Shown here one piece after another: positions 1-12,125 of a stretch of 16,648 nucleotides of DNA. The translations under genes were made by a program, and so were the position numbers. The notes beneath the pieces were generated by a model that saw only the letters and a list, made by a program, of their open reading frames with translations, searched no databases and was not told the DNA's origin. The DNA lies in the NCBI GenBank assembly GCA_041489255.1, contig JBGPQV010000033.1, positions 1-16,648 on the forward strand, in the 5' to 3' direction. The DNA comes from Thermoplasmata archaeon. GTDB taxonomy: Archaea; Thermoplasmatota; Thermoplasmata; RBG-16-68-12; JAFNFQ01. The first letter of the stretch is position 1, and the number at the start of each line of letters is the position of its first letter.

Positions 1-397
1 ATACGCGGGGATCATCAAGTACACGGGGGAACGCGTGCCCGGGGACCTGAGCAGCCTGAAGCTGGAGCCCTTCCTTACCGCCATACGCCAGGTCGCAGCT
101 GAATCGTACAGGGTCTTGAAGCCGGGGAAGCACTGCGCGATACTCATCGGAGACACGAGGAAGCACAAGCATTACATCCCGATCTCGGTGAGGGTGCTGG
201 AGCAATTCCTGGACGTCGGCTTCATCCTGAGAGAGGACATCATCAAGATTCAGCACAAGATGAAGTCGACGCGAGAAAAGTGGCGGGGAACCAAGTACGA
301 CTTCTACCTTTTGGCGCATGAGCACCTGTACGTGTTCAGGAAGCCCGCCACTGGAGAGAAGATGTCGGAGTTCAGGAACAGCGTGAAGTGGCGATAA
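1..397 (+). CDS. 3' part of a SAM-dependent amino-methyltransferase (N4/N6 DNA methylase / TRM11-like); runs off the left edge; repeat copy R1
   Basis: The frame is open from the window edge (YAGIIKYTGERVPGDLS...YRVLKPGKHCAILIGD...GFILREDIIK...HEHLYVFRKP) to TAA at 395-397. It is nearly identical to 3346-3861, which shows the DLVATHPPY motif IV. Whether the gene is intact upstream cannot be seen. Confidence 0.85.
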   Translation, partial: YAGIIKYTGERVPGDLSSLKLEPFLTAIRQVAAESYRVLKPGKHCAILIGDTRKHKHYIPISVRVLEQFLDVGFILREDIIKIQHKMKSTREKWRGTKYDFYLLAHEHLYVFRKPATGEKMSEFRNSVKWR

Positions 398-410
398 GTC
401 TGGACAGAGG

Positions 411-444
411 ATTTAAGTATCTGTCGTGCAATTATATCACGACA
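411..444 (+). promoter_or_regulatory. TATA box plus palindromic operator of cassette 1
   Basis: TTTAAG at 412-417, about 27 nt before ATG 444. Inverted repeat TGTCGTG-N9-CACGACA at 422-444. Confidence 0.6.
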
Positions 445-806
445 TGGCGACATTCGAGCGTCACATGGCCCAGTACAAGGCGTTGAAGGACATGGCGAAT
501 CTGCCTGCAGGGACGCCGCAGGGTCGTGTGGAATTGCTTTTCCTTGCCGCCTACCACCTAATCGATGCCTGCGCCGCGAAGAAGGGGCAGCACATCAACA
601 AGCATCAGAATGTTCGACGGGAACTTGAGGCCAAACCGATCATCCTTGGTGAACGGACTGAACGCGTCTGGCGGGCTTTCAATGACCTCCAAGGCGATTT
701 CCGCGCGAAGTTCGTCTACGGAGGCGATTGGAAAGAGAAGGAATTGGAGGAGGCTGTCCAGAGGTTCGAGACGGTCGAGAGACTGTGCCTGGAGGTGCTT
801 GGGTGA
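444..806 (+). CDS. HEPN-like (PaREP1/UPF0332-type helical) protein, putative toxin partner
   Basis: 120 aa from ATG 444. Contains LFLAAYHLIDACAA, HINKH and R-x4-Y (RAKFVYG). Paralogous to 3917-4279 and 10092-10454. Coupled to the downstream nucleotidyltransferase by a GTGA overlap. Confidence 0.7.
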   Translation: MATFERHMAQYKALKDMANLPAGTPQGRVELLFLAAYHLIDACAAKKGQHINKHQNVRRELEAKPIILGERTERVWRAFNDLQGDFRAKFVYGGDWKEKELEEAVQRFETVERLCLEVLG

Positions 807-1420
807 ACCCGCCGAGGATCGACAGGGCAGTTGCGGCCTTGAAGGAAATCCTGCACGGCAGACCAGAGGTGGAATCCGCAATCCTCTACGGTTCCTGCGC
901 CAAGGGCACGGCACGCGAAGACAGCGACATAGACGTGCTGGTGCTGGCCTCGGAGGGAAGTGCGGCCCGCCTCCGTGAGGAGATTCACGACATTGAAAGC
1001 GAGTTCGATGTGAATGTCTCGTCCATGGTTCTGCGTCCCCAAGAGATCGATCAGCTCGACCGCCAGTTTCTTGATTCCATTCTCAGGGAGGGGATCCCTC
1101 TGGCTGGACAGCTGCCAGAGGTCTCCATCCAAGACCTGCAGTTGCGCCCTCTGCGTCTGGTCAGTTTCGACCTGTCCCACCTGGCTCCTCCCCAGAAGAT
1201 GCGCCTCTACAGGCTCCTCGATGGCTATGTCACGGTGAAGCGCCGTGGTCGGAAGCGCTACGAGCACAGGGTGGACGGTTTCCTCAAGGAAGTGGGAGGC
1301 TGGCGGATTGGACGGGGGGCCATCGTGGTACCTGAGCCCGCCGCTCCCCGGCTCGAGGAGATACTCTCGAATGCCAACGCCAAGAGATGGACGATCGCAG
1401 CATGGGCCCAGCCATTCTGA
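803..1420 (+). CDS. Minimal nucleotidyltransferase (MNT) with an extra C-terminal domain
   Basis: YGSCAKGTAREDSDIDVLV is the pol-beta GS-x10-DxD motif. The GTG 803 start (NPP...) matches the paralog start MNPP at 10451 and overlaps the upstream TGA. Confidence 0.85.
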   Translation: MNPPRIDRAVAALKEILHGRPEVESAILYGSCAKGTAREDSDIDVLVLASEGSAARLREEIHDIESEFDVNVSSMVLRPQEIDQLDRQFLDSILREGIPLAGQLPEVSIQDLQLRPLRLVSFDLSHLAPPQKMRLYRLLDGYVTVKRRGRKRYEHRVDGFLKEVGGWRIGRGAIVVPEPAAPRLEEILSNANAKRWTIAAWAQPF

Positions 1421-1441
1421 ACGCCTCGCTCGTGCCTCACC

Positions 1442-1612
1442 CTCCGTGAGGACATCATCGAGATACAGCACAAGATGAAGAGCACGAGGGAGAAGTGGCG
1501 GGGGACAAAGTGCGACTTCTACCTCTTAGCTCACGAGCACCTGTGCTTGTTCAGGAAACCCGCCACTGGAGAGAAGCTTTCAGAGTTCAAGAACAGTGTG
1601 AAGTGGCGGTAG
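1442..1612 (+). repeat. R2: copy of the methyltransferase 3' end
   Basis: Reads LREDIIEIQHKMKSTREKWRGTKCDFYLLAHEHLCLFRKPATGEKLSEFKNSVKWR-TAG. Core 1466-1612. Confidence 0.95.
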
Positions 1613-1718
1613 AAAATGCGTCCGCTCTCTGCCTTAAGTAGGCCAAAGCGCATTGCTTAAATGTAAAGCGGTGAGTTGTGGAGAACTGCCGCGTTTCGAG
1701 AAGAGATGGCGAGCGACG

Positions 1719-11068: not shown

Positions 11069-11111
11069 CCGGCGATCTGATCCGGAATGAATCCACTGGT
11101 GCTTCACGCGT

Positions 11112-11251
11112 AGGATGAAGTCGACGAAGGAGAAATGGCGGGGACGAAGTATGACTTCTATCTACTGCCGCATGAGCACCTGTATGTGTTCCGGAAGCCC
11201 GCCACAGGAGAGAAGATGTCGGAGTTCAGGAACAGCGTGAAGTGGCGGTAG
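11112..11251 (+). repeat. R8: copy of the methyltransferase 3' end with a 1-bp deletion
   Basis: ATGAAGTCGACG from 11115 to AAGTGGCGGTAG 11251. One G is missing in the TGGCGGGG run relative to the other copies. Confidence 0.93.
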
Positions 11252-11302
11252 GGCCGCTTCTCTCGGCTCTGGCGGCTGGGAGTGAACGTAACATAGAAAT
11301 AG

Positions 11303-11578
11303 GTGAAAAGCACTACAATTTCAAGTGAAAATGTGTACCCGTTCGATCCCGTTACCTGCAAGCTCAGGATCGCCAAGCATTTCCGTAACACGAAGATGCG
11401 AAAGTGGGACTGGGACGATCACGACCTGCGAGAAGCATTGCAGGCCGCCCACCGGATCGAAAGGCATGGCAAGGAGAAGTTCGAGGTCTGGGTTCGTAAG
11501 GGCGGGTCGAAAAAACTCATATTGGTCTATGTCAGAGGAAACGACATGGTTTTCGTGATCACTGGCACGGAGGGTTGA
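11303..11578 (+). CDS. Small basic DUF4258/RelE-like putative toxin (start may be GTG 11333)
   Basis: IAKHFRNTKMR...DLREAL...LILVY.....VFVIT pattern. One nucleotide upstream of a YgiT-type zinc-finger gene. Confidence 0.55.
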   Translation: MKSTTISSENVYPFDPVTCKLRIAKHFRNTKMRKWDWDDHDLREALQAAHRIERHGKEKFEVWVRKGGSKKLILVYVRGNDMVFVITGTEG

Positions 11579-11579
11579 C

Positions 11580-11927
11580 ATGGCGGCAAAATGTCCGGTC
11601 TGTGGCAAAGGCGGACTCGTCGCGGTGGACGACATAGTCTCCGACATCGAAGGGATCATCTTCGTGGAGCGCGGGGACAGGTGCAACAGCTGCGGCGAGG
11701 AGTTCATCCCGGCCGAGGAGAGCGCCAAGATGATCAAGGTGGCGAGGCGCCTCGGCATCTGGGGGGAGCCGCTGAAGCTGCGCCGCAAGCTTTCGCGCAG
11801 TGGGAGAGGTATCGTTCTCCGCATCCCATCCGACCTCCAAGAGAGCCTCGGTCTCGAAGGCGACGAGGAAGTCACCCTCTCCAAGGTCGGCAAGAAACGG
11901 ATCGTGGTCGAAGTCAAATCCGCCTAG
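11580..11927 (+). CDS. YgiT/MqsA-type zinc finger fused to an AbrB/MazE-like domain; putative antitoxin
   Basis: KCPVCG...RCNSCGEEF, followed by RKLSRSGRGIVLRIPSDL..SLGL.GDEEV. Confidence 0.75.
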   Translation: MAAKCPVCGKGGLVAVDDIVSDIEGIIFVERGDRCNSCGEEFIPAEESAKMIKVARRLGIWGEPLKLRRKLSRSGRGIVLRIPSDLQESLGLEGDEEVTLSKVGKKRIVVEVKSA

Positions 11928-11984
11928 GACCTTGTTGGTGATTCTGGTTTGCCCCGGCGTCCCAGCTGGTCAAATTGCATGTGC

Positions 11985-12125
11985 AGGATGGAACTCATGA
12001 AGGAGAAATGGCGGGGGACGAAGTGCAACTTCTACCTCTTGGCGCATGAGCACCTGTACATCTTCAGGAAGCCCGCCAAAGACGAGAAGTTGTCGGAGTT
12101 CAAGAACAGCGTGAAATGGCGGTAG
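11985..12125 (+). repeat. R9: copy of the methyltransferase 3' end with a degenerate 5' part
   Basis: RMELMKEKWRGTKCNFYLLAHEHLYIFRKPAKDEKLSEFKNSVKWR-TAG. Confidence 0.93.

Follow-up and report, generated by a model that had tools for sequence, protein, structure and literature searches.

Copies of a DNA methyltransferase gene end separate small, mostly toxin–antitoxin cassettes in a Thermoplasmata archaeon

The DNA examined in this study (hereafter called the window) is the whole of contig JBGPQV010000033.1, 16,648 bp in length, from a Thermoplasmata archaeon, and it carries an array in which copies of the 3' end of a DNA methyltransferase gene alternate with small cassettes (Table 1). The resident methyltransferase gene has lost its 5' side at the contig start, and its final 147 nt constitute the first copy, R1. 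Besides R1, the last 49 or so codons are repeated eight more times over 1434-12125, with R4 truncated and R3 long; together with a remnant called R10, the gene end is present as eight near-complete copies (R1 included), one truncated copy, and one remnant. The 147-nt cores (QHKMKST...KWR and the stop codon) begin at 251, 1466, 3715, 7515, 9180, 9880, 11106, and about 12000, and a blastn search of all 41 contigs of the genome found no copies on the other 40. Similarity among the copies ends at the stop codon, and their 5' edges are ragged. Most copies in the window are 88-100% identical at the protein level; the distal ones look the most worn, namely R8 with its frameshift (one contig of run X6 has an extra G behind 11139, in R8), R9, and R10, which retains only a conserved block around TTCAGGAAGCCCGCCA. 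Between the copies lie nine cassettes of 0.5-2.5 kb, which hold four pairs of HEPN-like and MNT proteins, HicAB on the opposite strand, a zinc-ribbon/MazE-like pair, an ATPase_2/DUF234 ATPase, an HNH nuclease interrupted by an insertion sequence (IS), and two proteins without known family. Beyond the last remnant are ordinary genes, i.e., those for GNAT, a methyltransferase, and the ribosomal protein L15e.

Table 1. Positions of the gene-end copies (R1-R10), the cassette cargos, and the adjoining genes in the window (K numbers denote cargo families; ORF, open reading frame)
Feature	Position	Strand	Remarks
N6/N4 DNA methyltransferase gene (predicted), 3' part (131 codons)	2-397	+	ORF, translation
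R1	core 251-397	+	stop TAA
Cassette 1 cargo, K9	398-1433	+	
K9: 126-aa HEPN-like partner	426-806	+	no family found
K9: MNT nucleotidyltransferase, 230-aa ORF	728-1420	+	Pfam Polbeta/NTP_transf_2
R2	1434-1612	+	stop TAG; 5' edge specific to cargo K9
Cassette 2 cargo, K4: 338-aa and 215-aa proteins	1613-3364	+	
R3, long fragment	3365-3861	+	stop TGA; last ~499 nt of the 924-nt gene
Cassette 3 cargo, K5	3862-4930	+	Pfam
K5: 120-aa HEPN-like partner; MNT	3917-4279; 4276-4890	+	Pfam
R4, truncated after 45 nt	4931-4975	+	
Cassette 4 (HNH)	4976-7500	+	
IS-like DDE transposase insertion in the HNH cassette	about 5046-6483		Pfam DDE_Tnp_IS240/IS66
HNH endonuclease, 313 aa	6543-7484	+	Pfam HNH_2
R5	7501-7661	+	stop TAG; PAKEE allele type
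Cassette 5 cargo, K2: ATPase_2/DUF234 ATPase	7662-9159 (ORF 7757-9154)	+	Pfam
R6	9160-9326	+	GAG in place of the stop codon
Cassette 6 cargo: HicA 9330-9554; HicB-like 9555-9899	9327-9841	-	Pfam
R7	9842-10026	+	stop TAG
Cassette 7 cargo, K13	10027-11105	+	Pfam
K13: HEPN-like partner; MNT	about 10094-10454; 10451-11068	+	Pfam
R8	11106-11251	+	stop TAG; 1-nt deletion; private A>P
Cassette 8 cargo, K6: 91-aa protein and 115-aa MqsA/MazE-like zinc-ribbon antitoxin-like protein	11252-11980	+	weak Pfam matches
R9	11981-12125, homologous from about 12000	+	stop TAG; PAKDE allele type; private D>N
Cassette 9 cargo, K0	12126-13269	+	Pfam
K0: HTH-MNT; HEPN	12223-12825; 12770-13222	+	Pfam
R10, 37-nt remnant	13270-13306	+	last scar before the conserved flank
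GNAT gene, conserved flank	13334-13861	-	syntenic with G001, 77% identity

The gene that anchors the array is, as judged from its sequence, a predicted N6/N4 DNA methyltransferase of permuted order. A match to PF01555 was found on the paralogous 171-aa piece encoded by the ORF that holds R3 (3346-3861), and the score of a 307-aa full-length relative with this profile is 86.2 bits (cut-off 26.7). In that relative, positions 133-215 of the profile precede positions 1-109, so that the S-adenosylmethionine (AdoMet) region lies ahead of HPPY, a motif that is also present in the translation of the window; the closest solved chain is 2zie (E 4e-12). R3 begins at 426 of 924 in the coordinates of the full gene, and its homology to the gene begins at about 3365-3378 and not at the ORF start (3346), which is the one correction to be made to the first-pass annotation of this stretch. 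Contigs assembled from other samples run on upstream into methylase sequence and have loose ends at 3378 (in R3, at 3377/3378 in all four of four runs), and we noticed that the upstream methylase sequence missing here is joined, in the contigs of other runs, at the equivalent of 3378. The contig probably starts at position 1 because the long fragment R3, which is 92% identical, broke the assembly there.

That first-pass annotation, made from the sequence alone, had claimed that the copies differ mainly at synonymous sites, as if each had come from a different functional allele, and the codon choices on which it relied were all reproduced in our analysis. R1 and R3 differ at 12 of 147 nt, which comprise ten synonymous differences, one nonsynonymous difference (R/K), and TAA/TGA; a Ser residue is encoded by TCG in R1/R5/R6/R8, TCC in R3, and AGC in R2/R4/R7; the codon pair for LL appears as CTT-TTG, CTC-TTA, CTG-CTG, CTG-CTT, and CTA-CTG; and the replacement of M with L is made with three Leu codons (CTT, CTA, and TTG). 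Also, all three stop codons are in use, namely TAA (R1), TGA (R3), and TAG (R2, R5, R7, R8, and R9). When the eight copies were compared in 28 pairs by the Nei-Gojobori method, dN/dS was 0.019-0.32 and hence not near 1; summed over the pairs, the proportions of synonymous (pS) and nonsynonymous (pN) differences were 0.398 and 0.058, respectively, and dS between the copies was large (0.2-1.2). The variable columns are distributed over codon positions 1, 2, and 3 as 9/8/28, a skew that departs from equal thirds with a chi-square of 16.9 (p about 2e-4).

In a tree of the eight window copies and 12 alleles from intact or 5'-open genes (144 columns), furthermore, the window copies intermix with intact alleles of other genomes. 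R5 and R9 group with the intact alleles of three loci (L095, L098, and L014; support 86/85), and R2 and R7 with those of L081 and L093 (support 92/87). The copies do not form a single clade of this genome; forcing them into one lowered the log likelihood by 28.4 and was rejected in the approximately unbiased (AU) test (p=0.0055). Any tree built from 144 columns is made less reliable by recombination inside the repeats, although the rejection of a single origin is unaffected. The first-pass annotation had also suggested that a repeat might group with an intact gene bearing the same cargo directly downstream, and R5 provides such a case: its ATPase cargo, K2, is found directly behind the intact methylase gene in L095. 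The amino-acid variants of the window fragments (PAKDE/PAKEE, M/L, K/R, and V/I/L) likewise occur among intact alleles. The copies thus differ mainly silently by descent from diverged functional alleles in a wide donor pool, which upholds the earlier claim with two refinements described below.

Relatives of the gene end were collected from 41 related genomes, 79 metagenome loci, and 78 loci of species genomes, in which the metagenomes cover 80 of 292 confirmed matches. Arrays are present in six related genomes (G001, G013, G011, G016, G008, and G006), and a profile search with the 516-nt fragment, the coordinates of which are hereafter called model positions, found 201 copies in 96 sequences. 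The 3' end of 160 of the 201 copies is at model 513-516 (the stop codon is 514-516), and the 5' starts are ragged. According to the open frame upstream, the 201 copies comprise 35 ends of intact genes, 121 fragments, 18 that run off the contig, and 27 without the 3' end; the stop codon is kept at the same place in 96 of the 121 fragments and lost in 25. In the lineage of the window, the start lies within the final 325 nt of the 924-nt gene for 102 of 120 fragments (mode, 750-800), and the repeats are about 70 nt to nearly the whole gene in length. A close group of 89 copies gave 82 distinct cores, among which are 66 fragment cores and 13 intact or 5'-open cores. In the 66 fragment cores, the private (i.e., singleton) changes were 12 synonymous, 56 nonsynonymous, and three nonsense, and the resulting ratio of 4.9 is to be compared with 2.9-4.3 expected without selection. 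The 13 intact or 5'-open cores had no private changes, and their shared polymorphism falls on codon positions 1, 2, and 3 as 3/5/20. The private mutations of the fragments are neutral, and there is therefore no selection on the fragments in place; the silent bias is inherited from working alleles. The first refinement is, accordingly, that displaced fragments do decay neutrally. As a separate observation on these cores, two blocks poor in silent differences lie at model 451-468 and 475-513 (332-349 and 356-394 in R1) across the 82 distinct copies, and they contain four- and six-fold codons. An 8-bp inverted repeat (CCGCCACT / AGTGGCGG, 34 nt apart) spans the second block and could be a matter of chance.

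The cassettes are exchanged between lineages and reshuffled. In G001, a genome of the same genus, an array occupies the corresponding position, with the methylase gene on one side and the same GNAT flank on the other; cassettes 7, 4, 3, 2, and part of 8 are common to both arrays in a different order, and their identity is 84-96% as compared with 77% for the flank. The truncation of R4 is also shared (4928-5045 of the window match 2731-2849 of L013, a locus of G001), so that it belongs to the HNH cassette, and the IS-like insertion leaves a gap in the alignment to L013 and is thus not in the orthologous cassette. As for the individual cargos, K9 is found at 99.3% identity in L096 in another context; K4 occurs in G001 (L013), L105, and L091, and the long fragment always follows it; K5 is about 96% identical to L013 4864-6077; K13 is 99.9% identical to L086 and 93% identical to L013; and K6 is 100% identical in L086. 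In contigs from four other sediment runs, window-like repeat ends are followed by other cargos, and in one such contig R4 leads into R7 and from there into cassette 8, so that cassettes 4-7 are bypassed; this evidence consists of assembled contigs only and is silent on circles, depth, and the absence of cassettes. The same contigs contain two backward joints, 10026>1441 and 3859>3377, that could not be interpreted. Across 105 complete cassettes (median 984 nt) clustered into cargo families, a Pfam census of 300 ORFs from 62 families was dominated, among the families listed, by MNT (13 ORFs) and PIN, and also held ParE, VapB, MazE, HicAB, DUF4258, DndB, HNH, ATPases, and a few surface proteins. 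The arrays hence consist of short, mostly co-oriented, reshuffled, exchanged, and toxin–antitoxin-rich cassettes, as would be looked for in an integron-like system.

The joints of these cassettes define the unit that moves. The 5' edge of a repeat is set by the cargo upstream of it: at model 371-373 behind K6, 294-298 behind K3, 1-5 behind K4, and 350 behind three of four K2 cargos, the fourth (in L080) being followed by a repeat that starts at 20. It is with the downstream cargo, instead, that the stop codon and the bases just behind it are associated, as seen for K5 (TGA in 4/4) and K16 (TAA in 2/2). The cassette unit is therefore the stop-proximal tail of the preceding repeat, the cargo, and the 5' part of the next repeat. 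In the window, HicAB lies between R6 and R7 but is not between the same neighbours in L086, where a single repeat resembles R6 on its 5' side and R7 on its 3' side, with the switch at 448-480. Two flanking repeats, as opposed to one hybrid copy at the empty site, are what a long target duplication predicts (repeats of 70-500 nt). R9 is also a hybrid, with its switch at 475-480.

For the listed pairs that have a cargo identity of 95% or more, the divergence is 1.4% in the cargo (523/38583) and 9.6% in the adjoining repeat segments at 370-474 (269/2811 upstream and 196/2052 downstream), with many of the differences silent. Repeats between cargos of about 100% identity differ by 8-15%, which indicates gene conversion; the repeat between K13 and K6, for example, has a 48-nt patch with eight differences between the window and L086, and this patch is a conversion tract. 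When all pairs with a cargo identity of 80% or more were pooled, the repeat interior showed hardly any linkage to either neighbour, and a pattern emerged only at 90% or more. The second refinement is hence that the copies are mosaics that recombination has reshuffled, rather than former gene ends simply stacked in order of age. The stretch next to a repeat's 5' edge may never have been the C-terminus of this genome's own protein.

The same architecture is found in Candidatus Methanoperedens. In L160 (7010-15209), five tandem copies in frames of 305, 267, 99, 274, and 281 aa are separated by AbiE, MNT+HEPN, and PIN-type cargos, with pS of 0.46 and pN of 0.027, and L171 and L185 resemble L160 in having near-full-length methylase copies in tandem. 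A DDE transposase upstream and housekeeping genes downstream bound the L160 array.

Taken together, we consider that the 3' end of the methyltransferase gene is the landing site of small mobile cassettes, which carry mostly toxin–antitoxin genes together with an HNH nuclease and an ATPase. Without any mechanism attached, the origin of the silent bias in working alleles, the neutral decay of displaced fragments, and the mobility of mosaic cassettes make up an account that we hold with high confidence. As for the mechanism, the contrast between 9.6% divergence in the repeats and 1.4% in the cargo, the conversion patch, and the arbitrary repeat length point to homologous recombination. Two copies flanking a cargo would recombine and excise a circle composed of the cargo and one hybrid copy; the circle would then be inserted in the Campbell fashion, whether at the gene end or at any other copy and whether in the original cell or a different one, and a long target duplication would be recreated in this way. 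Gene conversion among the copies, including that of the live gene, would patch fragments with functional sequence; a defective tail at the live gene would be selected against, and a displaced fragment would gain fresh functional sequence. Such a supply would explain why most fragments are near-intact as protein even though their private mutations are neutral. No dedicated integrase would be needed. The whole account with homologous recombination as its mechanism seems to us somewhat more probable than its negation, and we hold it with corresponding reserve.

In the search for a recombinase, no match to the tyrosine recombinase profile PF00589 was found on the window contig, while the genome has four elsewhere; there was also none on the array contigs of G001, G013 (C14, 75 kb), G011, G016, and G006, nor on contig C8 of G001, which includes 10 kb upstream of the orthologous gene. 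The four recombinases of the genome itself gave no tblastn match in the window and 95 loci, and no recombinase was seen in the 9 kb upstream of the gene in L089, where the neighbours are defence-like, or in L160. Among the ORFs within 8 kb upstream of 16 intact genes, no family recurs in more than four loci. Three other candidates were tried and rejected: an attC-like hairpin (fold z-scores of -1.07 to +0.30 for four copies on both strands, i.e., eight strands), viral carriers (50 viral contigs with an exact 16-mer of the conserved block, all of them chance matches of 16-22 nt without protein similarity), and a homing endonuclease as the general driver (a nuclease, HNH, is present in only one of the nine window cassettes).

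Several observations nonetheless weigh against homologous recombination as the whole mechanism. The homology ends exactly at the stop codon in nearly all families, for which plain homologous recombination alone is insufficient. Repeats agree with the upstream cargo up to model 474 (5/11 at 469-474 against a background of 0.08, for cargo at least 90% identical) and with the downstream cargo from 481 onward (8/11 at 481-483 against 0.43, and 9/11 at the stop codon against 0.31), a switch of linkage at 474/481 that rests on 11 and 17 pairs, which are few and not independent. The two mapped crossovers, at 448-480 and 475-480, would also fit a fixed site. Silent diversity is very low in core codons 28-33 and 36-48 and high between and before them; the synonymous heterozygosity of codons 31-33 is 0-0.12 and that of codons 36-48 mostly no more than 0.1, as compared with 0.3-0.6 in 13-27, and there is a weaker drop at the 3' end in Methanoperedens. 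Such a pattern could mark a site at the DNA level. Furthermore, the window does not include the region upstream of the methylase gene; the metagenome contigs are possibly misassembled across the repeats; and the Pfam census of the cargo families showed no recombinase among the families listed, i.e., the 25 commonest of each listing, with 6 and 33 others that may include a rare one. The exact end of homology at the stop codon, the switch of linkage, the mapped crossovers, and the silent-poor codons would be accommodated by a site-specific recombinase acting in trans, in the manner of integrons or of cis-mobilizable elements (CIMEs), with its core at model 475-480 (GAGAAG), about 36-41 nt before the stop codon. 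This core is flanked by the two silent-poor blocks, and the gene tail carried by the cassette would restore the gene on insertion. It suits such an enzyme that R10 keeps just the conserved block, that the genome encodes four tyrosine recombinases elsewhere, and that tandem accretion with integrase-less CIMEs is known in bacteria (PMC5704250). However, no recombinase lies in or beside any array seen; G016 and G006 have arrays and zero matches to PF00589, albeit in genomes that are just 84-85% complete; the conversion patch lies between identical cargos, and in the wider set of pairs neither neighbour shows linkage to positions 391-470; the 5' extents, from about 70 nt to nearly the whole gene, are unlike a defined attachment (att) site; and the repeat has no attC-like fold. 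We regard a site-specific recombinase as a serious competitor, but a rather unlikely one.

The copies might alternatively be remnants of whole methylase genes, in which the original unit was a methylase with a partner cassette, repeated in tandem and trimmed from the 5' side; each copy would then have been selected as a full gene and not as a replacement tail. The near-whole tandem copies of Methanoperedens with toxin–antitoxin cargos between them (L160, and similarly L171 and L185) look like such units. Arrays also enclose long fragments and an intact gene: in L098 a fragment is found 2.7 kb upstream of an intact gene, the arrays of L080 and L091 contain copies extending to the 5' end of the 516-nt model, and a copy of this type opens the array in L092. 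Every 5' edge is, moreover, a one-off junction inherited by its cargo family. Random trimming would, however, spread the starts more broadly than the confinement of 102 of 120 fragments to the last 325 nt. This proposal concerns the origin and not the mechanism; it names no mover of the units and so complements both homologous recombination and a site-specific enzyme, and we judge it unlikely, slightly more so than the latter. Far less probable still, and in our view very improbable, is that the fragments are kept by present-day selection as small proteins or as DNA/RNA elements. Several copies do lie in small ORFs (52, 58, and 84 aa) that have a start codon, and many fragments are intact at the protein level, but the private changes are neutral (N/S 59/12 including the three stops), 25 of 121 fragments have no stop codon, the window itself contains the frameshift of R8, the truncation of R4, and the remnant R10, the 5' edges differ and are mostly without a start codon, and the repeat has no significant fold. 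Homologous recombination among gene-end copies that derive from working alleles thus remains the explanation that we favour.

Some features of the cassettes and of the gene deserve a brief description. The two K4 proteins (338 and 215 aa) have no match in Pfam or NCBIfam. The HNH protein resembles restriction endonucleases that bind phosphorothioated DNA (NCBIfam NF045808; 74.8 bits, which is below the 180-bit cut-off), and its setting is an array of defence-like cargo behind a DNA methylase. The IS-like element in this cassette contains two overlapping ORFs, for a zinc-ribbon protein (5136-5495) and a DDE transposase (5315-6457), and may be frameshifted. Two tandem methylase copies with the same internal deletion (about model 184-360) are present in the array of L134 (1178-2672). 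Relatives of the methylase tail, with 49-75% identity over about 55 residues, occur in bacterial metagenome-assembled genomes (MAGs) that are labelled as Patescibacteria, WOR-3, Armatimonadota, and Dehalococcoidia (L161, L184, L199, L209, L215, L216, L221, L222, L224, and L230), and the anchor gene itself appears to move across domains. In G001 (L014 6541-10549), the region upstream of the orthologous gene contains an adjoining second methylase (371 aa, 43% identical), which is preceded by two ORFs that read as ParB-like and Mrr-like by translation only; this region has the look of a defence island.

Outside viruses, plasmids, and a few reported integrons, the ways in which archaea acquire and trade small accessory genes are poorly understood. 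Here, one gene end gathers up to 9-12 cassettes in several lineages with no integrase visible. Because the silent differences derive from alleles and the private mutations are neutral, the arrays lend themselves to dating and to the tracing of their donors. Should the array be driven by homologous recombination alone, any conserved mobile gene would be a portable landing pad for toxin–antitoxin and defence genes, and such landing pads, if real, would help explain how defence islands form.

Among known systems, Rhs/CDI loci keep displaced "orphan" C-terminal modules downstream of the live gene, which can be swapped in by homologous recombination; those displaced tails are the variable functional tips of toxins, each with an immunity gene. 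In the methylase array, in contrast, the tail is conserved, and the variable part is the cargo between the tails, which is unrelated to the anchor gene. With the accretion of CIMEs and integrative elements in tandem at a target gene's 3' end (Pavlovic et al. 2004, as cited in PMC5704250), our array has in common the tandem units, the persistence of units lacking an integrase, and a gene that stays intact. CIMEs are decayed elements mobilized by a related integrase at short, defined att sites. All nine units of the window and the 62 cargo families scanned are, unlike CIMEs, without a visible recombinase; they also differ in their variable repeat length, conversion patches, archaeal hosts, and cargos of one or two genes. 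Furuta et al. 2010 (PMC2853133) reported restriction-modification genes inserted with long target duplications, from >30 bp to about 420 bp; the cases are bacterial, and no archaeal case passed the authors' screen. Those insertions resemble the present ones in their defence-type genes, long and variable direct duplications, lack of a mobility gene, and an empty site in a relative to which both repeats align. They are single insertions, whereas our arrays reach 9-12 units in one gene end, carry mostly toxin–antitoxin cargo, and have copies with the silent signature of many alleles. The thaumarchaeal elements of Krupovic et al. 2019 (PMC6563490) are inserted into protein-coding genes, in their 3'-distal regions, and supply a new stop codon; they are similar in being archaeal, in using the end of a protein gene, and in the noted tandem reuse of a site, but they have an integrase by definition, att sites mostly <26 bp, and a size of 2.6-98 kb.

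A literature search, limited to the terms used, found no description of methylase-anchored cassette arrays in archaea, and the array is a real, widespread, and apparently as yet undescribed variant of cassette accretion at a gene end. Integrons have been reported in Archaea (Ghaly et al. 2022, bioRxiv 10.1101/2022.02.06.479319 / PMC9668308), and the likeness extends to cassettes of ~1 kb that are mostly in one orientation, rich in toxin–antitoxin genes, reshuffled, and exchanged between genomes; unlike integrons, no IntI was found beside the array, and the repeat is the coding sequence of the anchor gene instead of an attC hairpin. We would tentatively suggest, as an idea that may well prove wrong, that the gene end serves an as yet undescribed archaeal gene-capture platform as its attachment site. 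This platform would be a functional analogue of integrons whose ~1-kb toxin–antitoxin and defence cassettes carry a copy of the coding tail, circulate among lineages as far apart as that of the window and Candidatus Methanoperedens, and undergo insertion, excision, and reshuffling by the homologous recombination of the host alone or by a recombinase of no recognized family.

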